Of a stretch of DNA of 10,351 nucleotides, positions 1-10,351 are shown piece by piece (positions within the stretch are counted from its first letter, which is position 1; the number at the start of each line of letters is the position of its first letter). The notes under the pieces were generated by a model that did no database searches, was not told the DNA's origin, and saw nothing but the letters and a program-made list of their open reading frames with translations. The stretch lies in the IMG/VR virus record IMGVR_UViG_2778261165_000022, positions 1-10,351 of that record, one strand, 5' to 3'. The DNA comes from a virus. Its lineage: Duplodnaviria > Heunggongvirae > Uroviricota > Caudoviricetes. Made by a program: the position numbers and the translations under genes.

Positions 1-1254
1 ATGCTGGAACAAATGGGCATTGCCGCGAAGCAAGCCTCGTATAAATTAGCGCAACTCTCCAGCCGCGAAAAAAATCGCGTGCTGGAAAAAATCGCCGATG
101 AACTGGAAGCACAAAGCGAAATCATCCTCAACGCTAACGCCCAGGATGTTGCTGACGCGCGAGCCAATGGCCTTAGCGAAGCGATGCTTGACCGTCTGGC
201 ACTGACGCCCGCACGGCTGAAAGGCATTGCCGACGATGTACGTCAGGTGTGCAACCTCGCCGATCCGGTGGGGCAGGTAATCGATGGCGGCGTACTGGAC
301 AGCGGCCTGCGTCTTGAGCGTCGTCGCGTACCGCTGGGGGTTATTGGCGTGATTTATGAAGCGCGCCCGAACGTGACGGTTGATGTCGCTTCGCTGTGCC
401 TGAAAACCGGTAATGCGGTGATCCTGCGCGGTGGCAAAGAAACGTGTCGCACTAACGCTGCAACGGTGGCGGTGATTCAGGACGCCCTGAAATCCTGCGG
501 CTTACCGGCGGGTGCCGTGCAGGCGATTGATAATCCTGACCGTGCGCTGGTCAGTGAAATGCTGCGTATGGATAAATACATCGACATGCTGATCCCGCGT
601 GGTGGCGCTGGTTTGCATAAACTGTGCCGCGAACAGTCGACGATCCCGGTGATCACAGGTGGTATAGGCGTATGCCATATTTATGTTGATGAAAGTGTAG
701 AGATTGCTGAAGCATTAAAAGTGATCGTCAACGCGAAAACTCAGCGTCCGAGCACATGTAATACGGTAGAAACGTTGCTGGTGAATAAAAACATCGCCGA
801 TAGCTTCCTGCCCGCATTAAGCAAACAAATGGAGGAAAGCGGCGTGGCATTACACGCAGATGCAGCTGCGCTGGCGCAGTTGCAGACAGGCCCCGCGAAG
901 GTGGTGGCTGTTAAAGCGGAAGAGTATGACGATGAGTTTCTGTCATTAGATTTGAACGTCAAAATCGTCAGTGATCTTGACGATGCCATCGCCCATATTC
1001 GTGAACACGGCACACAACACTCCGATGCGATCCTGACCCGCGATATGCGCAACGCCCAGCGTTTTGTTAACGAAGTGGATTCGTCCGCTGTTTACGTTAA
1101 CGCCTCTACGCGTTTTACCGACGGCGGCCAGTTTGGACTGGGTGCGGAAGTGGCGGTAAGCACACAAAAACTCCACGCGCGTGGCCCAATGGGGCTGGAA
1201 GCACTGACCACTTACAAGTGGATCGGCATTGGTGATTACACCATTCGTGCGTAA
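1..1254 (+). CDS. proA: gamma-glutamyl phosphate reductase (glutamate-5-semialdehyde dehydrogenase)
   Basis: 417-aa ORF from the track with TAA stop at 1252..1254. Length and sequence match enterobacterial ProA as I recall it. Window begins at its ATG. Confidence 0.95.
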
Positions 1255-1368
1255 ATAAAACCGGGTGATGCAAAAGTAGCCATTTGATTCACAAGGCCAT
1301 TGACGCATCGCCCGGTTAGTTTTAACCTTGTCCACCGTGATTCACGTTCGTGAACATGTCCTTTCAGG

Positions 1369-1444
1369 GCCGATATAGCTCAGTTGGTAGAGCAGCGCAT
1401 TCGTAATGCGAAGGTCGTAGGTTCGACTCCTATTATCGGCACCA
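1369..1444 (+). tRNA. thrW: tRNA-Thr (anticodon CGU), thrW-like
   Basis: 76 nt GCCGATATAGCTCAGTTGGTAGAGCAGCGCATTCGTAATGCGAAGGTCGTAGGTTCGACTCCTATTATCGGCACCA folds as a cloverleaf: acceptor stem GCCGATA/TATCGGC, D stem GCTC/GAGC, anticodon loop TTCGTAA (U33, CGT at 34-36, A37), T loop TTCGACT, discriminator A and encoded CCA. Sits directly downstream of proA, as thrW does in E. coli. Confidence 0.93.
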
Positions 1445-1460
1445 TTAAAATCAAGTAGTT
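1400..1460. other. probable prophage attL / integration junction at the tRNA 3' end
   Basis: The integrase stop codon (1459..1461) is 15 bp from the tRNA 3' end. tRNA-targeting integrases recombine within the 3' part of the tRNA and regenerate it. The second junction (attR) is outside the window, so core boundaries are not determinable. Confidence 0.4.
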
Positions 1461-2619
1461 ACCCCATATTTAAATACACCACGTTCTCCTCTTGTGCCGT
1501 ATTTGTGCCATTGCGACTTATAATCGCATCGATTTTGCTTGCGTGCTCGGTGAGATGCCCGGCTGAAAGGTGGGCGTATCTTTGAACCATTTCGAGAGTT
1601 TCCCATCCTCCCATCTCTTTAAGTGCAAGAAGAGAGACACCGGACTGAACCAGCCAGCTTGCCCAGGTATGCCTCAGATCATGGAAGCGGAAGTTACTAA
1701 TGCCTGCCCGCTTTAACGCTCCCTTCCATGCCTTGTTGCTGTCGGTTCTCATCTTCCTTACCGCTGCTGTTTTTGTTCCGTCGCTTCGGTAGGCAGGTTT
1801 GGTGTGGACAAATACCCATCTCTTATGGAGCCCCTGCTGTTTTCTTAATATCTGGCATGCGGTTTCGTTAAGAGGAACTCCGATCGCATTGCCAGCTTTT
1901 GTTTCATCAGGGTGTATCCATGCCATTTTCTTATCCAGATCGACCTGTGACCACTCAAGGTCTGTAACGTTGGAACGGCGAAGGCCTGTCGTGATTGCAA
2001 ACATGACCACAGGGAAGAAGTGAGGAGCAATTTCTGCAAACAGGCGCTTCGATTCCTCCTCTGTAAGCCATCTGATGCGTCCATTCTTAACGCGTGGTGT
2101 TGATATTTTGGGTGCCCTGTCAAGCCATCCCCATTCAACAGCCATATTGAGAATGGCGCGAAGTATTGCCAGATGCCTCGTCTTCGTTCCTTTGCTTGCA
2201 AGCTTTGGTTTATACTCCGGCACCGGATTGCCAAGTCGCAAACACCTGTCCCGGCTCATCTCCCAGTTCAGGCGATGGCGGCGGTTTTCCATCCCATCTA
2301 CCGCCTCCATTATTTTTTCTGTTGTTATGTCAGAGAGAATGGCTTCTCTGAAGTGCAACATCCAGAACGATATAATGCTCTTGTCATCATCAATGGACTT
2401 CTTATCCGATTTCTCACGCAGCCACCGTATGCAGGCTTCCTTGAATAGCTTTTTCGGTGATTCCCCGAGATTTTTTACTCTCCACGCTTCTGCTTTCAGA
2501 CGATCGTGAAGTTCTTGCGCTTGCCTTTTGTCCGATGTTTCAAGAGAGCGTCTAACTCTTGATCCATCTGGCGCGACGAAATCGCAGTGCCACGTGCCAC
2601 CGCGTAGTTTGATTGACAT
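1459..2619 (-). CDS. int: phage integrase, tyrosine recombinase (P22/lambda-like)
   Basis: 386-aa ORF with ATG at 2619 preceded by AGGAGG. C-terminal catalytic signature HDLRHTWASW ... VQRYAHL (His-x-x-Arg and catalytic Tyr). Placement next to a tRNA gene with xis overlapping upstream. Confidence 0.93.
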   Translation of the reverse strand: MSIKLRGGTWHCDFVAPDGSRVRRSLETSDKRQAQELHDRLKAEAWRVKNLGESPKKLFKEACIRWLREKSDKKSIDDDKSIISFWMLHFREAILSDITTEKIMEAVDGMENRRHRLNWEMSRDRCLRLGNPVPEYKPKLASKGTKTRHLAILRAILNMAVEWGWLDRAPKISTPRVKNGRIRWLTEEESKRLFAEIAPHFFPVVMFAITTGLRRSNVTDLEWSQVDLDKKMAWIHPDETKAGNAIGVPLNETACQILRKQQGLHKRWVFVHTKPAYRSDGTKTAAVRKMRTDSNKAWKGALKRAGISNFRFHDLRHTWASWLVQSGVSLLALKEMGGWETLEMVQRYAHLSAGHLTEHASKIDAIISRNGTNTAQEENVVYLNMG

Positions 2620-2843
2620 GCTTTAACCTCCTGCACATCAACCGCATTCACCGCGCTATTGTGTCTCACAGACTTAAGCGCCGCAATGCAGTCTGACTTG
2701 CAAATGCGATATGGGCTTTTAGGTTTATCTGGATTTATCTTTGCGGCCTGAAGTCGTCCACTTCGTATCCACTGCGTGATAGTGCCTTTGTCTACCTTCA
2801 GATACGACGCTGCCTCTTCACGAGTGAAGATTTCTTCTTCCAC
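2496..2843 (-). CDS. xis: excisionase-family DNA-binding protein
   Basis: 115-aa ORF whose N-terminus (EIFTREEAASYLKVDKGTITQWIRSGRL) looks like an excisionase/HTH_17 helix-turn-helix. Apparent GTG start at 2843 with GGAGA about 6 nt upstream. 3' end overlaps int by 124 nt, as is usual for xis-int pairs. Confidence 0.75.
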   Translation of the reverse strand: MEEEIFTREEAASYLKVDKGTITQWIRSGRLQAAKINPDKPKSPYRICKSDCIAALKSVRHNSAVNAVDVQEVKACQSNYAVARGTAISSRQMDQELDALLKHRTKGKRKNFTIV

Positions 2844-2933
2844 CTGGAATCTCCATTTATTGGATTGGTATTATTGCGGTAGGTCTGGATATCATTGAGC
2901 AATGAACAGGCCTCATCGAGTATGAGGCTGTGG

Positions 2934-3278
2934 TTAGTCCTTGCGTAGCTCGATGATTCTTCTGTAAGTCTCTGGTGCTTTGTTTCCGTGTATCTTCATT
3001 TCAGACTTCAACAGAGCAACGAGAGAATCCCATTCGTTGAGGATGCCTTTGAATGCCGGAACGCGCTTTGCAACCTTGTCGAATGAATCCCTGATTTCTG
3101 GAATCTGCTCGACAAGCGCAACGCATCGTCGGAAATCGGCTACATCATGTGGAGCGCCGAAGTGATGACCATAGATATTCTTTTTCAGTCCACATGCGAT
3201 TGAGGCAAGAGTTGCGCTACTGATGCCAACATCGCCAGTCGATTGCCATTTCAAAACCTTCATAGCCAAATCTGACAT
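2934..3278 (-). CDS. hypothetical phage protein (114 aa)
   Basis: Track ORF 2934..3305, but the first ATG lies inside a terminator hairpin. The ATG at 3278 (MSDLAMKVLKW...) is preceded by GGAGA at good spacing. No family recognised. Confidence 0.55.
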   Translation of the reverse strand: MSDLAMKVLKWQSTGDVGISSATLASIACGLKKNIYGHHFGAPHDVADFRRCVALVEQIPEIRDSFDKVAKRVPAFKGILNEWDSLVALLKSEMKIHGNKAPETYRRIIELRKD

Positions 3279-3290
3279 TTCTTGTCTCCA

Positions 3291-3312
3291 ATAAAAAACC
3301 GCCATCAGGCGG
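3291..3312 (-). terminator. intrinsic terminator (minus strand)
   Basis: Minus-strand reading GCCGCC-TGAT-GGCGG followed by TTTTTTAT. The hairpin contains the stop codon of the 55-aa ORF. Confidence 0.55.
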
Positions 3313-3472
3313 CTTGGTGTTCTTTCAGTTCTTCAATTCGAATATTGGTTACGTCTGCATGTGCTATCTGCGCCCATATCATCCAGTGGTCGTAGCAGTC
3401 GTTGATGTTCTCCGCTTCGATAACTCTGTTGAATGGCTCTCCATTCCATTCACCTGTGACTTTGAATTTCAT
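3305..3472 (-). CDS. hypothetical small protein (55 aa)
   Basis: Hand-translated ORF not in the track: MKFKVTGEWNGEPFNRVIEAENINDCYDHWMIWAQIAHADVTNIRIEELKEHQAA. ATG preceded by AGGTGA. Bracketed by intrinsic terminators on both sides. Coordinates approximate. Confidence 0.4.
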   Translation of the reverse strand: MKFKVTGEWNGEPFNRVIEAENINDCYDHWMIWAQIAHADVTNIRIEELKEHQAA

Positions 3473-3483
3473 TAAGTTTCACC

Positions 3484-3510
3484 TGTAAAAAAAGGAGCCG
3501 AAGCTCCTTT
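3484..3510 (-). terminator. intrinsic terminator (minus strand)
   Basis: Minus-strand AAAGGAGC-TTCG-GCTCCTTT followed by a T run, immediately after the TAA stop of the AntA-like gene (3515..3517). 8-bp stem with a UUCG tetraloop. Confidence 0.65.
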
Positions 3511-3514
3511 GATA

Positions 3515-4138
3515 TTAAAATTCGAATTGTCTCGCCCGAAGGCTTTTTAACATTGGTCTTGCCCGTTCGAAAATGGCGCTTGTCTGGTCAATTCGTGTTG
3601 CCTCCCTGAGCAATGCGTCTCTGTTTTTCGTCACCGTGTAGAAAGTCTCAAACGCGATGTCATACAGCTTGCTCGCGTATGATGAGTTCAGTTCCTTCAA
3701 TATCGGATACAGGCGTTTGCTGATGTCCTGTGCTTTCTCCATCTGTACCTGCATGTAGCAGAGGAGGATGATTTCCTCGTCTGTGAATTGCTGCGCTGGT
3801 TGCATGCTGCGAAGTTTCTTTTCACACTCGATGAAGTATCGGCGTATCTGGCGACCTTTTTCGTTACGCTCGACCATTGCCAGCTCTTTGGCTGTGTCGA
3901 GGGTGAGGTGATAGTCTTTGCTACGGCGATCGCCTCCTCGACCTTTGATTTCCCTATTTGGGGAAACCAAAATATAGTCCTGATTTTCAACGAATCCATA
4001 TTCAGCAATGCGTTCTGTAATCCACGATGCAAAGCGTTTACCTACCCCAAGAAAAGTATGTAAATCTCGAGCATTAACGAGAAGAGTGATTTCGTTGGCG
4101 ATAGTGCCGTTGAATACGGGGATGAGTTGACTGGTCAT
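3515..4138 (-). CDS. AntA/AntB-like antirepressor-domain protein
   Basis: 207-aa ORF, ATG at 4138 preceded by AAAGGA. The N-terminal segment ARDLHTFLGVGKRFASWITERIAEYGFVENQDY resembles the AntA/AntB antirepressor N-terminal domain as I recall it. The C-terminal half is unassigned. Confidence 0.6.
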   Translation of the reverse strand: MTSQLIPVFNGTIANEITLLVNARDLHTFLGVGKRFASWITERIAEYGFVENQDYILVSPNREIKGRGGDRRSKDYHLTLDTAKELAMVERNEKGRQIRRYFIECEKKLRSMQPAQQFTDEEIILLCYMQVQMEKAQDISKRLYPILKELNSSYASKLYDIAFETFYTVTKNRDALLREATRIDQTSAIFERARPMLKSLRARQFEF

Positions 4139-4462
4139 TTTTATGTCCTTTCGATTCGTTCAGATTACCCTGTGTTCAGCAGGGTGGTCAGGTACTTGAA
4201 CACCGTCGAAAGTTCGGCCCGCATCCTTAGCCTTGCGGCTGTTTTTCGGTATACGCGCTACCCGACCATATCTGAAAAATGGACATAAAAAATCCGCATG
4301 ACTGACGGGTGCGGTTTCCGCTTTCGAAGGTGTGTTCAGCACCATGAAGCGGAATATAGCCCCGTTAATGCGGATTTGTCAAATCATGTGGTCTTTATCT
4401 TGCTGTAAGCCGCGCCATTCGGTCTTTTCCCCCCAGATTTGGGGAAAACTATCTTGTCAAAA
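4139..4462. promoter_or_regulatory. structured intergenic region (candidate promoter/operator or small RNA locus)
   Basis: 324 bp without a convincing ORF. Two palindromes share a 7-nt centre with different arms: CCCTG-TGTTCAG-CAGGG (about 4168..4184) and GGTG-TGTTCAG-CACC (about 4327..4341). Two hairpins share the stem CCGCA/TGCGG, one followed by a T run on the plus strand (about 4219..4246), one followed by a T run on the minus strand (about 4287..4314). Inverted repeat TTTTCCCC-N8-GGGGAAAA at about 4425..4448. Confidence 0.4.
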
Positions 4463-5206
4463 TCATGCAGCCTTTCGTTCTCCTTCGATGAGTTCCTCGA
4501 TCTTGTGCACTCCCGCCTCGTTGTAGCGAAATGTCTCGACCTGCTTGTCACTGTGCGCCGATTTGTCGATGAACCACTTCCCGTACTTTTCTGTTTTGAG
4601 CATGTAGGTGTTGGCAATGCGCCCTACCTTGTTGGCTGAAATGCCAAGCATGGTGCCAACCTCCGACGCAGAGTAGTGATGTTCATCAATGACCGGAAGA
4701 GGGATTGCACTAAAGCCGACGACGGGATTAATCAGGCTGGCGGCAACGACCTGTTTAGCTTCCGGTGCGAGGTGAGGGAGGAAGTCGAAGAGGTCTTTCA
4801 TTGTGTCGACGGTCATTTTCAATGCGCGTGCCTTACGGAATTCTTCAAGGCCATCCGGTGATTTCTTCGTGGTCGTTTTTTGTTGCAACTGCTGTTGCAT
4901 TGATTCAAGTTTGTCGACCAGCGAACGACGGACGGCTTTCGACTCACGTGCGGCGACGCGCAGGGCTTGCTTGTAGGTCATCACTATAACCACCTGATCC
5001 GCTCCGCCTTTTTTCTTATCCATGGGGGTTACGAAAATTTCGTAACCCTCCCCCTCAAGCTCATCTTTGATGCGTGCAATGAAGTCGTTGTTGCGTACTT
5101 CTTTTTCGCCTCGCAGTCTCCGCGCCTCATTAACCATTTTCAACAGCATCTGGCTGTCAATTGTTGCAGCCGGAAACGAAGACTGATTTGCAATATTGTT
5201 AATCAT
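4463..5206 (-). CDS. hypothetical phage protein (247 aa), possible C-terminal HTH/KilA-C-like region
   Basis: Track ORF 4463..5263. The in-frame ATG at 5206 (MINNIANQ...) has AAGGA upstream; the ATG at 5263 has no Shine-Dalgarno. C-terminal SASEVGTMLGISANKVGRIAN looks helix-turn-helix-like. No confident family. Confidence 0.6.
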   Translation of the reverse strand: MINNIANQSSFPAATIDSQMLLKMVNEARRLRGEKEVRNNDFIARIKDELEGEGYEIFVTPMDKKKGGADQVVIVMTYKQALRVAARESKAVRRSLVDKLESMQQQLQQKTTTKKSPDGLEEFRKARALKMTVDTMKDLFDFLPHLAPEAKQVVAASLINPVVGFSAIPLPVIDEHHYSASEVGTMLGISANKVGRIANTYMLKTEKYGKWFIDKSAHSDKQVETFRYNEAGVHKIEELIEGERKAA

Positions 5207-5301
5207 GTATTCTGTCCTTTTCAGATAAAAGAAATCCCCGCGAGTGCGAGGATTGTTATTCATTGCCGATATTCACCTTTATCGCGAACACCTTTACCGG
5301 T

Positions 5302-5544
5302 TTATCTCCTTTGCATGGCGCGTAATTTTTTCAGATGGTTCTCCTGCTCTGTTTCAGCCAGAATTTGTCGGTATTCCTGGTGATCGATCCGTTCAAACAG
5401 TTCATTAAAATCGTTTATTTTTACCGACTGTGTTCGCCCATCCATTCTTCTGTACAACACAGTGTTGTTTATGCAGCGAAGAATTTTTATCGGGTAGCCG
5501 GCGCTATCGGTGTATATCTGACCACGTTGAATCAGAGCGAACAT
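5302..5544 (-). CDS. hypothetical small phage protein (80 aa)
   Basis: The track ORF begins with a TTG at 5598. The first ATG (MFALIQRGQIYTDSAG...) at 5544 has GGGGATAAAGGA upstream. No family recognised. Confidence 0.45.
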   Translation of the reverse strand: MFALIQRGQIYTDSAGYPIKILRCINNTVLYRRMDGRTQSVKINDFNELFERIDHQEYRQILAETEQENHLKKLRAMQRR

Positions 5545-5618
5545 TCCTTTATCCCCAGCGGAAAAGCGAATACAGAATAAATGCCACCGCGATTGCAACT
5601 CCTACAGCGGTGAATGCT

Positions 5619-6281
5619 TCAGGCCAATTCATCATTCACTCCCTGCGGCGGTTCTGGTAGCAGCATCCAGTACAAGGCGTTCCCTAACCACGATAAAGTG
5701 CCGTCGCTCAACTCCACGTATTCCCCTTGTACCTGTCCTGCCATATACTCGCCGTGCTTTGAATAAATTAAAACCCAATCGTCTTGAGCGGGAATTCGCT
5801 CACTACAGCTTATCCAACCATCCGGAATTACCGGAGAGTTGGTTGACGTTTCCGAGGTTTCCCGAAAATTATTGGTTGACGAATCCTTATTTTCCCGAAA
5901 GTTTCCAGCCTGAAGCATTGCGGCGCGGCAGGCGTTCCAGCCTCTCACCTCTGCAATAGCGGCAACAGCATCAACCGCGTACATGCTAAGAGGATTAGGC
6001 ATTGGTTTTTCTTCCGGTACTACTGGAACGGGTGGAGCGGCGTAGACTTCAATAATCCCATTATCAATAGGCCATTCTCCATCCTTGAGGTAGTCACTTG
6101 TGCCGTCAACTTTCTGTTCTGCAATGTGGAATGCACCTATTGGTTTTGCTTCCAGCGATACCAGTGCAATTCGTGCCAGTTCCTCCGCTTCTTCTGCTGG
6201 CAGTACAACGTTGCTACCCGGTCCGTATGTTTCGCGCCACTGCTTGATTGTCAGCAGTCGCTCTTTGGTTATAGTGGTCAT
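5619..6281 (-). CDS. DUF551-domain phage protein
   Basis: 220-aa ORF. C-terminal IPDGWISCSERIPAQDDWVLIYSKHGEYMAGQVQ...LSWLGNALYWMLLPEPP resembles the DUF551 domain common in lambdoid prophages. Its ATG overlaps the upstream gene's stop (ATGA), implying translational coupling. Confidence 0.7.
   Translation of the reverse strand: MTTITKERLLTIKQWRETYGPGSNVVLPAEEAEELARIALVSLEAKPIGAFHIAEQKVDGTSDYLKDGEWPIDNGIIEVYAAPPVPVVPEEKPMPNPLSMYAVDAVAAIAEVRGWNACRAAMLQAGNFRENKDSSTNNFRETSETSTNSPVIPDGWISCSERIPAQDDWVLIYSKHGEYMAGQVQGEYVELSDGTLSWLGNALYWMLLPEPPQGVNDELA
5839..5901. repeat. 33-bp imperfect tandem direct repeat inside the DUF551 CDS
   Basis: TTGGTTGACGTTTCCGAGGTTTCCCGAAAA and TTGGTTGACGAATCCTTATTTTCCCGAAAG, about 23/30 identical and 33 bp apart. 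Encodes the 11-aa repeat NFRENKDSSTN / NFRETSETSTN in the linker before the DUF551 domain. Confidence 0.6.
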
Positions 6282-6487
6282 TTGTTAATCCTCAAAACTT
6301 TATGCCCGGGCGCAAAAGCACGCGTTTTGTCTTTGCTTATTCGCCAGCCATCCTTGCGCGCCTCTTTTGCACAGCCAGCCCATGACGTACCGATATATTC
6401 ACCGAAGTCTGGCGTTTGATATTTACCATTTGTACACTGGCGACAATCACAGTAGAGATGCATGGTGTAACTTGCGGCAATAGCCAT
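6278..6487 (-). CDS. small Cys-rich protein (69 aa), possible zinc-binding
   Basis: Track ORF 6278..6649 begins with a TTG. The in-frame ATG at 6487 (MAIAASYTMHLYCDCRQCTNGKYQ...) has AAGGAG 7 nt upstream and lies 1 nt after the Ea22-like stop. Cys at positions 13, 15, 18 and 39. Confidence 0.5.
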   Translation of the reverse strand: MAIAASYTMHLYCDCRQCTNGKYQTPDFGEYIGTSWAGCAKEARKDGWRISKDKTRAFAPGHKVLRINK

Positions 6488-6488
6488 A

Positions 6489-7259
6489 TCACTCTCCTTT
6501 GATGCGAATACCAGCAGCGCGCTCGGCTTCACTTTGTTCCCAAAACCACTTGTGAAGCGCCATAAGCTTTTCGTCAATCGGTGCATATTTGCGATTAAAG
6601 TAGGCCTGAGCATCTTTCTCAGATTCGTCCGGTAATTCGCCAGGGCCAAACAGTGTGTTATAAATCCATGCTAGTCCGCTCTTAGCGTCGCCAGTTGCCT
6701 GCCATTCGATAATGGCAGCCTGCATGACCAGAATGTTTTTCCCGATTAATAGGTCCAGTTCTTTGTACCGGTTGCGGATGTATGCATTCTCGCTTTGTAA
6801 TTTTGCGTTGCGCTTTTCTGAGGCTTCAAGTAACGCCTGCTTATCGCGTAGCGCTTCTTCCAGTTCAGCAACATGGCATTCACTATCAATAAGGTTGTTC
6901 TCTGCTGCTTCAAGCTCAACACGCAGCTTCCCAACCGTAAGCGCAATCTCCTCGTTCTCCTGGTCGCGGCGTTTGATGTATTGCTGGTTTCTTTCCCGTT
7001 CATCCAGCAGGGCCAGCGCAACATTTGGATTAAAAGCAGCAATAAATTCAGCGTTTGCATAAGCCTGAACATCTGTTTCAACTAGGCAGTTAACATGACA
7101 TTCCGCAATCACACCACCGGGTTCTCCTTTCCATTTTTGGCAAACAAAAACTCCTGTTAAATTGCCGTGCTGGTTAACAGATGTATGCCCTACGATGTAG
7201 CTTCCTTTAGTTGCTTTCTCTGCCTTTTCACGCAGTGCCTGATAATCAATCTTGCTCAC
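6489..7259 (-). CDS. Ead/Ea22-like family protein (coiled-coil)
   Basis: 256-aa ORF, GTG start with AGGAGG 6 nt upstream. N-terminal [14 protein letters not shown] and a long Glu/Leu/Arg-rich central helix resemble the Ead/Ea22-like proteins of lambdoid prophages as I recall them. Confidence 0.65.
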
Positions 7260-7423
7260 TGGTTGCCTCCTTTGCGCAACATCGCATTCAGATATTTGTT
7301 GTCATTAACAGAACCGAAACTATTTCCCTTAAGCAATTCCTCTCTCGATGGCATTGGCTTTACGCGTTGGCGAATAATCATTTCTGCTGGAAGAATGCCG
7401 GGATTGTATGCAAGTCCTCTCAT
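7256..7423 (-). CDS. hypothetical small protein (55 aa)
   Basis: Hand-translated: [58 protein letters not shown] preceded by AGAGGA. Its stop overlaps the Ea22-like GTG start (GTGA). Coordinates approximate. Confidence 0.4.
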
Positions 7424-7439
7424 GGTAAATTCCTCTTTG

Positions 7440-7754
7440 TTAATTTATTCGTATGCCTTCTCTTTCTTCATCGAGTTTTTTTAGCTTGTATCGCATAGCT
7501 CTTACTGAATAAATTGAGCGGCAGGTTGCAATTGCTATTTCTTCTGCGGAGAACTTACCGAAAAGTGATACTTCGGCTCTTGTCCAGCGTCTTCCACGAA
7601 GTCGGCTAACAATGTCAGCGCCAATCCTTGTTGCTTTCGCCATTACTGCTTTCTCAGTCCTTTCCAGTTTTTCAGCGATAACTTCAACTGGCATTGTTGC
7701 CGCTACTTCGCGCAAGAAATCTACTTCCCATTTCTCCCAAGGAGTCTTTTTCAT
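7440..7754 (-). CDS. hypothetical protein (104 aa) with two internal HTH-like repeats
   Basis: Track ORF with ATG at 7754. Two similar segments, [32 protein letters not shown] and [32 protein letters not shown], share a W-x-x-E-x-x-L...IA pattern reminiscent of GcrA-type helix-turn-helix repeats. Confidence 0.5.
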
Positions 7755-7765
7755 AGGCGATACCG

Positions 7766-8248
7766 TTATTTGATAAGAAGTGAAGGTTTCCCAACCTTGA
7801 GTTGAGCGCCTGGGATATTTATTCCTGCTTTTAGTTGGTGCTTGATTGCCAACTTGTCGGCTTTAATTGTCGTTTCAAACTCAACGTATTCAGGAGGAAG
7901 GGCGCTTGAGTCGATGATTTCTACAGTTTCTGACGGTTTGCGGATTGTTACCTGGTGAATACCTGCTCGAATCTTTTTCTTGCCAACCATTTCAAGCGAT
8001 GACGCTATATATGATTTGATGCTGTCAATCTTATTTTGAATTACTGCGGCTCGCTCATTCAGCGACTTTGCCTCTTCCTTGAGGCGTTCAGCATAACCAG
8101 ATTCATTTTTAATAATGGCGAGAAGTTGCTCTATTTTATCGGTAAATTCTCCTTCCATGCCTTCTATTGTGTCAGCAATCATCTCTGGATCTAAATCTGA
8201 ATCCATCAATTTTGCGTATTCATTGGCTATTTCATATAGTTTGCTCAC
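7766..8248 (-). CDS. Siphovirus Gp157-like protein
   Basis: Track ORF 7766..8254 begins with a TTG. The GTG at 8248 has GGAGG 6 nt upstream. Sequence pattern (LYEIANEY..., DTIEGMEGEF, GKKKI, VTIRKPSETVEIID, LPPEYVEF, AIKHQLKAG, PGAQL) matches my recollection of the Gp157 family that often accompanies RecT. Confidence 0.65.
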   Translation of the reverse strand: MSKLYEIANEYAKLMDSDLDPEMIADTIEGMEGEFTDKIEQLLAIIKNESGYAERLKEEAKSLNERAAVIQNKIDSIKSYIASSLEMVGKKKIRAGIHQVTIRKPSETVEIIDSSALPPEYVEFETTIKADKLAIKHQLKAGINIPGAQLKVGKPSLLIK

Positions 8249-9143
8249 TGGCAACCTCCAGTTTCGCTTTGCATTCTATGTAAATGGCTTGTACGTTCTG
8301 CTGTAATTTCATTCCAGATGTTAGGCGATATGCTTCTGCAAAATATCGCTTCAAATCATCCATGTTTTCTGCCTGAGCCATTTCATCGCAAAGAAGTTGT
8401 ACTTTATCCATTATTTCCTGCTGGCGTTTCCGTTCATCTTCGCGGATATCTTCCTCTGATTTGTGCGGCATAACTGGTTCAGTCCACACACCTTCTTCTT
8501 CGTTTAGTACGTGAATAGCACTATCAAGACGTGATGCCTTAGGCCAATACTTGCTTGCACGCTTTACGACCGTCTTTCGCGCCATCTCATTCCAGTGATT
8601 TACCCATGGTCCTTTATCGCTGAATGCTGCCTTGCTTGTTTTCCTTACAGCCTCAATTTCAGCCAGACTCATCTCTTCCGTTAGATAATCACCTGCTGGC
8701 GTCTTAACTGTGCAGTAAACGCCAACGATATCACCACGATCACCGAAGGCGTTGTATTTATGGGTTGGTGCTTTATCAAGCCCGTTTGACTCATAGGTAT
8801 CGTTAGCATGAACAAGTTTTGCCTGACCCCATGAGATAACACCAGACTCCATTGCAATATGGAGCAATCCCATATAACTGATATCAAGGCAAACCATGCC
8901 GTCGCGCGGAACCAGATAAGCCAGTTTGCTGGCCGGGTTTAAGGTGATGCCGATCGCCGCAACATTGATGATGGCGTTCTGTGCGCTGGTTGGATTTGCC
9001 AGTGCCGTTTTAGCCAGGTAATCGTTTTTCTGGAAATACTGAATTGCAAACTGGCTTTCCTTAGCCCATGTCACCGTCTGTTCAGTCAATGCTCCGCAGA
9101 ATAACTGCTCTTGCTGTTTAACGAATTCAACGATATTGCTCAT
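8232..9143 (-). CDS. recT: RecT-family single-strand annealing recombinase
   Basis: 303-aa ORF, ATG at 9143 with GGAG 8 nt upstream. The motif GPWVNHWNEMARKTVVKRASKYWP closely parallels GPWVTHWEEMAKKTAIRRLFKYLP of Rac RecT. ATGA overlap with the upstream gene. Confidence 0.85.
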   Translation of the reverse strand: MSNIVEFVKQQEQLFCGALTEQTVTWAKESQFAIQYFQKNDYLAKTALANPTSAQNAIINVAAIGITLNPASKLAYLVPRDGMVCLDISYMGLLHIAMESGVISWGQAKLVHANDTYESNGLDKAPTHKYNAFGDRGDIVGVYCTVKTPAGDYLTEEMSLAEIEAVRKTSKAAFSDKGPWVNHWNEMARKTVVKRASKYWPKASRLDSAIHVLNEEEGVWTEPVMPHKSEEDIREDERKRQQEIMDKVQLLCDEMAQAENMDDLKRYFAEAYRLTSGMKLQQNVQAIYIECKAKLEVASEQTI

Positions 9144-9451
9144 GCAGCTTCTCCAAAAATGTGTCTGCGTTTGAATATTGCGAAGGCATATTCAGCCTTA
9201 ACTCTTTCGGTTATTGCATCCCAGAACCATTCAGCGGCTTTTTCCTGATAGTTACAATCATCATCTTCCAGCCAGTCGATAGCATCCTTAGTATGTTCAT
9301 CTGGTTTATATGAGCGAAGCATTTCGCTTATTGGGTCGCAACGTTTGCAGAGGCGATCAACTTCACTGTTGATTCGTTCGTAATCTTCATCAGTAAAACT
9401 TGCGATAATTTGCGATATTTCACGCTTATCATTCAGAGTCAGAATCATCAT
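9140..9451 (-). CDS. hypothetical acidic phage protein (103 aa)
   Basis: Track ORF with tandem ATG ATG at 9451 and GGAGA upstream. Rich in Asp/Glu. Translationally coupled to recT. Confidence 0.55.
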   Translation of the reverse strand: MMILTLNDKREISQIIASFTDEDYERINSEVDRLCKRCDPISEMLRSYKPDEHTKDAIDWLEDDDCNYQEKAAEWFWDAITERVKAEYAFAIFKRRHIFGEAA

Positions 9452-9532
9452 CTTTCTCCTGTTCTTTGTGCTGATTGAGCATTTTGTTCATCTGACGAAT
9501 GAATTCTTCGTCTGACCAGTTATCTGTAAAAC

Positions 9533-9685
9533 TCATTTCCTGCGATACCACGGAAGGTTGATAGCTGATTTCATCGCTTTATTTGCTTCAAGCCACATTT
9601 TTGAATCACCAATAAATCTGGCTATTACTGCTTTGTTTTGTGCAGCACGAAGCATCTGGTGATTGATGGCTATTTCATTGCGCAT
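9533..9685 (-). CDS. hypothetical small protein (50 aa)
   Basis: Hand-translated: MRNEIAINHQMLRAAQNKAVIARFIGDSKMWLEANKAMKSAINLPWYRRK. ATG preceded by GGAGG at 5 nt. Coordinates approximate. Confidence 0.4.
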   Translation of the reverse strand: MRNEIAINHQMLRAAQNKAVIARFIGDSKMWLEANKAMKSAINLPWYRRK

Positions 9686-9804
9686 AACGCCTCCAGTTGT
9701 TTCTTTGCTGCTCTGATTAATTGTTTAACTCGGCGTGATAATTCAGATTCGTGCGGGTAGAAAGCGGACATGACGCCGCTACCCGCGAGCTGAAAGTGCA
9801 TCAT
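9670..9804 (-). CDS. hypothetical small protein (44 aa)
   Basis: Track ORF 9670..9855. The in-frame ATG at 9804 (MMHFQLAGSG...) has AAGGAG about 7 nt upstream. 3' end overlaps the next ORF's start by 16 nt. Confidence 0.4.
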   Translation of the reverse strand: MMHFQLAGSGVMSAFYPHESELSRRVKQLIRAAKKQLEALCAMK

Positions 9805-9887
9805 GGGTAACTCCTTATATTTGATTGCATAACGAAAACGCCTCAAGTGAAGCATTATTGGTATGCGGTAAAGCCGCGCTTGGCGGC

Positions 9888-10225
9888 TTATTTGAAGACT
9901 TCTATGAAATCAAGAACTGATGATATTTCGTGGTTGAATGATTTTCTTTTATATCTTTCTATCGCAGAATCTACCTGGTGTTTATAGTCATCGTCGTTTG
10001 AGTATTTAACGAAGCATTCTATTGTCTCAGGCGTTACAGCCATAAGGCTCCACCAACCTTCATCAGATTGATATTCAAATCCCATGCTTTCAAGCCATCC
10101 AGCATATTTCCCTCCAGCATCTTGCCAGTGAGTCTTTTCTGCAAGAAAACTGTTAACCGTCATATGTGCATCAAGGCATTTATCCAACTGTTTACCATTA
10201 AGCAGCCATGCGCTGACAGTTGCAC
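9888..10225 (-). pseudogene. prophage early gene, probably truncated at its 5' end by IS2
   Basis: Track ORF 9888..10253 begins with a TTG inside the IS2 terminal repeat. The first native ATG (MTVNSF..., 10163) has no Shine-Dalgarno. The frame stays open up to the IS2 boundary, consistent with loss of the true N-terminus. Confidence 0.45.
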
Positions 10226-10351
10226 TAGACTGGCCCCATGAATCTCCAGACAACCAATATCACTTAAATAAGTGATAGTCTTAATACTAGTTTTTAGACT
10301 AGTCATTGGAGAGCAGATGATTGATGTCTTAGGACCGGAGAAACGCAGACG
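10226..10351 (+). mobile_element. IS2 (IS3 family) left end, partial; continues beyond the window
   Basis: TAGACTGGCCCC.TGAATCTCCAGACAACCAATATCACTTAAATAAGTGATAGTCTTAATACTAGTTTTTAGACTAGTCATTGGAG matches the IS2 left terminal region as I remember it, followed by the insC start. Confidence 0.8.
10317..10351 (+). CDS. insC: IS2 OrfA transposase (InsC), N-terminal 11 codons only
   Basis: ATG at 10317 preceded by GGAGAG. Translation MIDVLGPEKRR matches the InsC N-terminus (MIDVLGPEKRRRRTTQEK...) from memory. Confidence 0.75.
   Translation, partial: MIDVLGPEKRR

Follow-up and report, generated by a model that had tools for sequence, protein, structure and literature searches.

Do phage genes whose stop and start codons overlap encode proteins that are made in fixed proportions and act together, or do such junctions reflect the way in which an early operon is packed and assembled? 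This question is raised by four genes on the minus strand (positions 5619-7423) of a 10,351-nucleotide (nt) stretch of caudoviricete DNA (IMG/VR record IMGVR_UViG_2778261165_000022, positions 1 to 10,351), the whole of which is referred to here as the window. In the direction of transcription, they encode a DUF2737 protein, an Ea22-like protein, a cysteine-rich protein of 69 amino acids (aa), and an EaA-like protein with a carboxyl-terminal DUF551 domain. A first-pass annotation, made from the sequence alone, had noted that stop and start codons overlap or abut across all four genes, and had read this as tight translational coupling that suggests fixed stoichiometry and possibly a complex. The geometry was confirmed at every junction, all on the minus strand. 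An obligate unit was not supported, as the junctions persist while the genes on either side of them change, with two junction sequences joining 17 and 19 different pairs of gene families. We conclude that the four genes probably belong to an ordinary mosaic operon with portable junction cassettes.

Junction geometry and its local background

The DUF2737 gene (7256-7423, minus strand; 55 aa) matches Pfam PF10930 over residues 1-51 of 55 (E = 3.7e-30; 104 bits, against a gathering cut-off of 25) as well as PHROG 1117, and is annotated by PGAP as a coding sequence (CDS) on an identical copy. It starts 16 nt past the stop of the preceding 104-aa gene, with a Shine-Dalgarno (SD) sequence, GAGGA, 7 nt before its ATG. 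Its end is formed by what we call cassette A (AAAGGAGGCAACCAGTGA; 7256-7273, minus strand), which encodes the tail …KGGNQ, contains the SD AGGAGG, and closes with a stop codon that overlaps the next GTG, giving GTGA at 7259-7256. This GTG is the sole plausible start of the 256-aa Ead/Ea22-like gene (6489-7259, minus strand), because the Pfam profile (PF13935, E = 4e-36, residues 2-141) aligns from residue 2.

The Ea22-like gene ends in cassette B (AAAGGAGAGTGATATG; 6485-6500, minus strand), which encodes the tail …KGE and contains the SD AAGGAG; its TGA (6491-6489) is separated by a single base (6488) from the ATG (6487-6485) of the 69-aa open reading frame (ORF). This ORF (6278-6487, minus strand) encodes a basic protein that matches PHROG 926 over its full length (E = 4.5e-37, 1-69 of 69) and belongs to no Pfam family. 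At its far end, junction C (GAGGATTAACAAATGA; 6278-6293, minus strand) consists of the SD GAGGA, a 7-nt spacer, and the ATG of the DUF551 gene, which overlaps the stop of the 69-aa ORF as ATGA (6281-6278). The last of the four genes (5619-6281, minus strand; 220 aa) is a modular EaA-like gene with matches to Pfam PF04448 (E = 4.5e-9, residues 155-213; 37.5 bits, against a gathering cut-off of 22), PHROG 60, and other PHROGs. In strain Z1323CEC0004 (L001), whose copy is 100% identical, RefSeq/PGAP annotates the same four CDSs.

By our own reading of the gene calls, about 8 of the 17 junctions of the minus-strand operon are overlaps or gaps of at most 1 nt, and packing is equally dense in the related regions of a 933W-type prophage (L098) and of Klebsiella phage Chronis (L096). 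The tight geometry of the four genes does not exceed this local background. Each downstream gene also has a strong SD of its own (AGGAGG, AAGGAG, and GAGGA, at a distance of 6-7 nt from the start), and the four junctions are not predicted to fold into more stable RNA structures than shuffled sequences do (z-scores of +0.3 to +0.45); nothing therefore suggests that initiation on a downstream gene needs translation of the gene before it. Sequestration of the SD as a basis for obligatory coupling was rejected, given that no junction showed an unusually stable structure. Internal promoters or terminators that would divide the four genes were rejected as well: promoter-like and terminator-like sites in 5200-8300 were no more numerous than in shuffles.

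An example of a translationally coupled pair with a stop/start overlap is trpB-trpA; in classical cases of this type, the partners do not change and assemble into a complex. The junctions described here resemble this type in their four-base stop/start overlaps and in the placement of the SD inside the upstream coding sequence. They differ from it, however, in that their partners vary freely and in that no RNA structure ties the downstream start to upstream translation.

Portable cassettes and exchangeable partners

The comparison covered 252 related loci in all: 92 with a relative of the 69-aa gene, 80 anchored on DUF2737, 79 anchored on a Klebsiella-type homolog of the 69-aa gene, and single annotated records. 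Cassette A (AAAGGAGGCAACCAGTGA) was found 113 times in 173 sources, in 17 distinct pairings of 3 upstream with 11 downstream families. Cassette B, in the form AAAGGAGAGTGAtATG and again encoding …KGE, was found 125 times in 173 sources, where 6 upstream and 12 downstream families made up 19 pairs. Downstream of DUF2737, the cassette AGGAGGCAACCAGTGA is retained whatever gene comes next; this gene is Ea22-like or belongs to one of at least 10 unrelated families, all of which begin with V-S/T at the same GTG. It is thus only through the shared cassette that unrelated proteins come to have the same carboxyl-terminal tails. With at least 11 unrelated families following DUF2737 at the GTGA cassette, the fixed stoichiometry and complex that had been deduced from tight coupling found no support.

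The 69-aa gene behaves in a similar way. Among the homology blocks that span it, mapped in 83 loci, the left limit is 12-34 nt ahead of the ATG in 78; on the right, the blocks reach 0-31 nt past its stop codon in 41 and as far as the end of the EaA N-module in 28, which marks the gene as a discrete module of about 230 nt. The first-pass annotation had stated that loss of the small ORFs from close relatives with conserved flanking genes would speak against its reading, and this is what the comparison showed: the 69-aa ORF can be missing between conserved flanks. Six such loci have the same Ea22 carboxyl-terminal domain (94-98% identity) and the same cassette without the 69-aa gene; in L135, L159, and L177 an EaA-like/DUF551 gene comes straight after, and in L113, L133, and L176 the next ORF is one of 63 aa. 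Only about 6 of the 80 loci anchored on DUF2737 contain the 69-aa gene at all.

Substitutions and insertions affect the other positions. In 933W-type prophages, the gene that precedes Ea22, again with a 4-nt overlap, is TraR/DksA-like instead of DUF2737; these prophages also have a 62-aa ORF between the Ea22 gene and the 69-aa gene, and a DUF4014 membrane ORF as the next gene after the latter. The 62-aa ORF is present at this position in 49 of 80 relatives and absent from the window. It is a candidate gene for a very basic protein (MKNRKAK…HLRTKGE, WP_000797281; 2709-2897 in L098), and it ends in the KGE cassette. Together, the breakpoints and the portable cassettes suggest that the junctions reflect operon packing and a mosaic syntax rather than a dedicated stoichiometric complex.

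Mosaic gene boundaries and the modular evolution of lambdoid phages have reportedly been described by Juhala et al. in 2000 and Clark et al. in 2001. The window shares with such boundaries the novel joints at gene borders, the short shared sequences at these joints, and the presence of a RecT/Red-type recombinase nearby. The difference is that the shared boundary here is a cassette of SD, stop, and start, which imposes the tails …KGGNQ and …KGE on proteins that are otherwise unrelated. A shallow literature search found no published description of these cassettes.

On this basis, the four genes would be separately exchangeable modules of the hyper-mosaic accessory (exo-xis/ea) stretch of the pL operon, expressed from one long transcript. 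Each junction would be a short conserved cassette, in which the last codons of the upstream gene hold a strong SD that is followed by the stop and the next start. Such cassettes would pack genes without spacers and may allow ribosomes to start or re-start efficiently on any next gene. As the same 15-18 nt end many unrelated genes, the cassette would mark the boundary at which phages swap genes. The breakpoints themselves are observed; the recombination that produced them would have taken place inside the cassette, presumably through RecT/Red-type enzymes acting on short homologies. Relaxed recombination by enzymes of this type is documented (PMC2327257, PMC3945230). That two portable cassettes impose common tails and coincide with breakpoints bears on how swapped genes in a mosaic genome are kept expressible.

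The 69-aa protein and its lasting neighbor

The possibility that the 69-aa ORF is spurious was rejected. Its variable sites are concentrated at the third codon position (20, 16, and 53 at positions 1, 2, and 3), codon differences are synonymous in 226 cases and non-synonymous in 108, and none of 33 alleles contains an internal stop. Judged by these codon patterns, the gene is real and under purifying selection. A profile search retrieved 403 representatives (at the 50% identity level) at E ≤ 0.001, nearly all of 60-80 aa, while no relative was found in Pfam, NCBIfam, or PDB sequence searches.

The cysteine cluster and the distal cysteine that had been noted at first were confirmed (C13-x-C15-x-x-C18 and Cys39), and the protein carries the family motif Y-C-D-C-x-x-C … A-R-x-x-G-W … A-P-x-H within its full-length PHROG 926 match. 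In an alignment of 57 family members, C13 and G47 are invariant, and Y7, Y12, A43, and W48 are present in at least 90%. C15 is found in 39 of the 57 and C18 in 49, while 45 have His and 10 have Cys at position 62; extra cysteines are frequent at positions 57 and 59, giving C-x-C-P-x-C/H variants. Cys39, on the other hand, is found in only 28 members, against 55 with His or Cys at position 62, and was rejected as the fourth ligand of a classical zinc ribbon. Members without any other cysteine retain C13, C15, C18, and H62. The most economical site would therefore be of the Cys3-His type (C13/C15/C18/H62), tying the carboxyl-terminal tail to the turn after strand 1, and putative binding of a metal, such as zinc, through these four residues is plausible.

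The first-pass annotation had suggested a small zinc ribbon, and had proposed structure prediction as a check. AlphaFold2 instead predicted a ββαββ topology (mean predicted local distance difference test [pLDDT] scores of 80 and 83 for two models, falling to about 62-66 in the carboxyl-terminal tail), which is unlike a zinc ribbon. Neither model matched a PDB structure at E ≤ 0.001 in Foldseek, zinc ribbons included, the best template modeling (TM) scores being about 0.4, to folds like that of protein G B1; a fold search of BFVD returned uncharacterized phage proteins only. The protein resembles zinc ribbons in its small size, its clustered cysteines, and its probable structural zinc (as predicted), but has a single CxCxxC and a carboxyl-terminal His in place of two CxxC knuckles, in addition to the different predicted topology. 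Homology to Ea8.5 of lambda was rejected (hhalign probability of 0.5%).

With an isoelectric point (pI) of 9.4, the protein is basic. Two longer representatives are of note (P0048, P0173): one (134 aa) consists of two tandem copies of the 69-aa domain, and the other is a fusion to a carboxyl-terminal excisionase-like helix-turn-helix (HTH) domain. The basic pI and the HTH-fused relative would fit a role related to nucleic acids or to regulation. Relatives at 30-50% identity were also found in virulent Ackermannviridae (312 of 433 phage records), where a bPH_2 membrane protein and a dCMP deaminase are encoded alongside, as well as in Drexlerviridae (L095, 2504-2704, and L100, 1998-2207, cover both groups). 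These relatives have no Ea22 or DUF551 neighbors. Most likely, the 69-aa protein is a small, zinc-stapled, basic Cys3-His protein that acts alone or with the product of the EaA-like gene, which comes next in nearly all cases.

That product is modular. Its gene starts with an N-module (MTTITKERL…ALVSLEAKP, 6141-6281), continues with variable middle modules, and ends with the DUF551 domain (5643-5819), and shuffling of such modules is evident among 69 distinct proteins encoded downstream of the 69-aa gene. In the E. coli clade, 75 of 86 loci have the ATGA overlap after the 69-aa gene, the next gene begins with M[TI]T[ILF]T… in 69 of 86 (its N-module ending in …ALASLEAEP), and it has a DUF551-type end in 40 of 86. 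In the Klebsiella clade, where the 69-aa homolog is about 45% identical, a 4-nt overlap with an EaA-like gene beginning with MT[SK]… is found in 76 of 79 loci; here the DNA of the junction differs, and the upstream partner is variable, usually ending in …AAGIKVEAE with a 1-nt TGATG overlap. Klebsiella phage Chronis encodes a triad of an Ead_Ea22 protein (gp52), a 69-aa homolog (gp53), and a DUF551 protein (gp54), and a Kosakonia prophage encodes a weakly Ea22-like protein, a 69-aa homolog at 60% identity, and a DUF551 protein. These two triads belong to a different operon, being located downstream of dnaB in the nin region.

Several of these observations weigh against a purely mosaic operon. 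The order of Ea22-like, 69-aa, and EaA-like/DUF551 genes recurs with tight junctions at 45-60% identity in Chronis and Kosakonia, and an adjacency that lasts across 79 Klebsiella-clade loci despite such mosaicism would be expected of a functional pair. Furthermore, a similar AAGI[KR]…E peptide forms the carboxyl terminus of unrelated upstream proteins in several clades, although the underlying DNA differs; conservation of this kind, at the level of the peptide, is not explained by a model in which only DNA cassettes are shared. AAGINLTVEG is among these similar carboxyl-terminal peptides (L003-L094, L096, L182, L186-L264). Finally, because similarity to DUF2737 or the 69-aa gene was the basis on which loci were selected, the sample is biased toward close relatives.

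The evidence for a functional link is best for the 69-aa gene and the EaA-like/DUF551 gene, and does not extend to DUF2737. It is possible, if on balance somewhat doubtful, that the two proteins, perhaps with the Ea22-like protein, form a functional unit, in which a constant small subunit would be produced along with a modular protein of conserved N-module and variable carboxyl-terminal domains, and the ATGA overlap would ensure their co-production. The retention of the overlap in both clades, although the Klebsiella-clade homolog of the 69-aa protein is only 45% identical, speaks for this, as do the EaA-like starts that follow in either clade, the two nin-region triads, and the fusion of Ea22 heads to DUF551 domains in single proteins (PHROG 60; PMC10834534; L149, L168, L178). 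However, the nearly invariant 69-aa protein (93-100% identity) stands beside at least 6 very different N-modules (26-95% identity), on the right-hand side half of the breakpoints lie no more than 31 nt from its stop, and pairs of Ea22 and EaA-like genes are far more common without the 69-aa gene than with it. In 933W-type prophages the DUF4014 membrane ORF comes next instead, and family members in virulent phages have other neighbors. No fusion of the family to an EaA-like/DUF551 domain was found among the longer representatives examined, where candidates for domain fusions were limited to a false-positive eukaryotic metalloprotease, the tandem duplicate, and the HTH fusion. Such a pairing would be compatible with the mosaic operon.

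A bolder version, in which the cassettes are selected "universal adaptors" for in-register shuffling by RecT/Red and the 69-aa protein, with a new zinc-stapled ββαββ fold, is the constant partner of Ea22, EaA, and DUF551 proteins, appears unlikely. If it were true, the 69-aa protein could, for example, belong to a diversifying module for host takeover or counter-defence, and the cassettes would provide combinatorial diversity of early accessory genes.

Less probable still is the initial proposal that the DUF2737, Ea22-like, 69-aa, and DUF551 proteins are translationally coupled, made in fixed ratios, and assembled into one complex. Its basis is the presence of three consecutive tight junctions between four co-transcribed early genes, but the same cassettes join many unrelated gene pairs, each gene has a strong, unsequestered SD, 933W-type prophages have the TraR/DksA-like gene in place of DUF2737, close relatives lack the 69-aa ORF between conserved flanks, and 49 of 80 relatives carry the 62-aa insertion. 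As a warning for similar cases, stop/start overlaps in phage accessory regions should not be taken as signs of a complex.

The mosaic operon with portable cassettes thus remains our preferred reading. It leaves a widespread and unstudied family of small Cys3-His phage proteins, now defined, whose sole stable neighbor is the equally unstudied EaA-like/DUF551 family. Both this family and the cassettes with their imposed tails may be of use to work on phage mosaicism or on the genes of the exo-xis region.

The Ea22-like protein and the surrounding prophage

The Ead_Ea22 profile matches the Ea22-like protein with 125 bits, against a gathering cut-off of 27, and covers its N-terminal head and coiled coil. 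The coiled coil (residues 72-123) shares 73% identity with its counterpart in lambda Ea22 and is the sole part aligned by BLASTP, which detected no homology between the carboxyl-terminal domain and the solved carboxyl-terminal domain of lambda Ea22; no sequence match to this domain was found in the PDB either. Rather, the domain is of the 933W or "enterohemolysin-2-associated" type, and is found with 100% identity on many different Ea22 heads. One NCBI record names it "enterohemolysin 2". Ea22 has been described as a tetrameric, pro-lysogenic protein with a head that varies, a coiled coil, and carboxyl-terminal domains that can be interchanged, of which DUF551 is one variant (PMC10834534); the tetramer and the pro-lysogenic activity were reported for Ea22 of lambda and of Shiga toxin (Stx) phages (PMC10834534, PMC7093339). 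No functional work on DUF2737 or DUF551 was found in the literature.

In related loci, the same modules move between Ea22-type and EaA-type genes, which suggests that the two genes flanking the 69-aa ORF belong to one hyper-modular superfamily. Three loci (L149, L168, L178) contain single ORFs with an Ea22 head (VSEINYQ… or VSKIDYQ…) and a DUF551 end (…WMPLPEPPQE), so that the two neighbors of the 69-aa ORF in the window correspond to one fused gene in some relatives.

An anti-defence decoy role for the Ea22 carboxyl-terminal domain, as a copy of some part of the Dpd (7-deazaguanine) defence system and with the neighboring small genes as accessories, seems improbable: the PADLOC model "DpdH" (PDLC02890) does match Ea22 residues 145-243 (6531-6827, minus strand; E = 1.8e-36), but it has only 127 positions, whereas DpdH/DpdI is described as a BrxC-like large ATPase (bioRxiv 10.1101/2025.09.15.676423), NCBIfam gives no match for the domain, at least 120 of its 3465 homologs, all of those listed, are Ea22-like prophage proteins, and the gene neighborhood is that of a prophage early operon. 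The label is probably an artefact of a short model that was mis-seeded with prophage ORFs.

The neighborhood is indeed the early-left (pL) operon of a lambdoid E. coli prophage. The window opens with E. coli proA (1-1254, plus strand), and the prophage is integrated at the tRNA-Thr(CGT) gene just downstream of it (1369-1444). The stop codon of the integrase gene (1459-2619) lies 15 nt from the 3' end of this tRNA gene, and from 1459 onward all prophage genes are on the minus strand. In order of position, these are the genes for a tyrosine integrase, an excisionase-like HTH protein, two antirepressor-like proteins, and a DUF4222 protein, followed by the four genes studied here, the 104-aa gene, genes for Gp157 and RecT, a 103-aa gene, kil, and cIII. 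The four genes thus belong to the accessory part of the operon, with the recombination genes on one side and xis/int on the other; the counterpart of this part in lambda and Stx phages is named the exo-xis region (PMC10834534, PMC8614690). The region is a routine piece of a lambdoid prophage, with all four genes in catalogued families and an architecture of a known kind.

The exo-xis region of lambda and Stx phages (orf60a, orf63, orf61, orf73, ea22, and ea8.5) occupies the same position in the pL operon, from the recombination genes to xis/int, and likewise has an Ead/Ea22 gene that is followed directly by a gene for a small cysteine-rich protein. This protein, Ea8.5, is a homeodomain/zinc-finger hybrid and a positional analog of the 69-aa protein only, as the sequences are unrelated. 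The window further differs from lambda in having RecT and Gp157 in place of exo/bet/gam, an Ea22 head and carboxyl-terminal domain unlike those of lambda, and DUF2737 and EaA-like/DUF551 genes where lambda has orf73 and orf55. Genes of the exo-xis region are expressed early and affect the lysis-lysogeny decision (PMC10834534, PMC7093339). As the region affects lysogeny and the induction of Stx prophages, the genes described here are reasonable, if not urgent, candidates for study.

The largest intergenic gap of the operon (4139-4462, 324 nt) contains no convincing ORF and is flanked by the two antirepressor-like genes (AntA/P22_AR_C, 3515-4138, and PHROG 1726, 4463-5263). Among 5426 complete E. 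coli genomes, 141 carry at least 80% of 6278-7423, and none of the complete E. coli genomes contains the whole window in one place at a coverage of at least 80%; likewise, no phage record covers at least 80% of 5619-7754. A block of 7.5 kb (2878-10351) is 99.6% identical to a prophage in L001 (NZ_CP148483.1), which adjoins mdtA/mdtB and has an integrase and excisionase that differ from those in the window, so that one early-left region is joined to two different integration modules.

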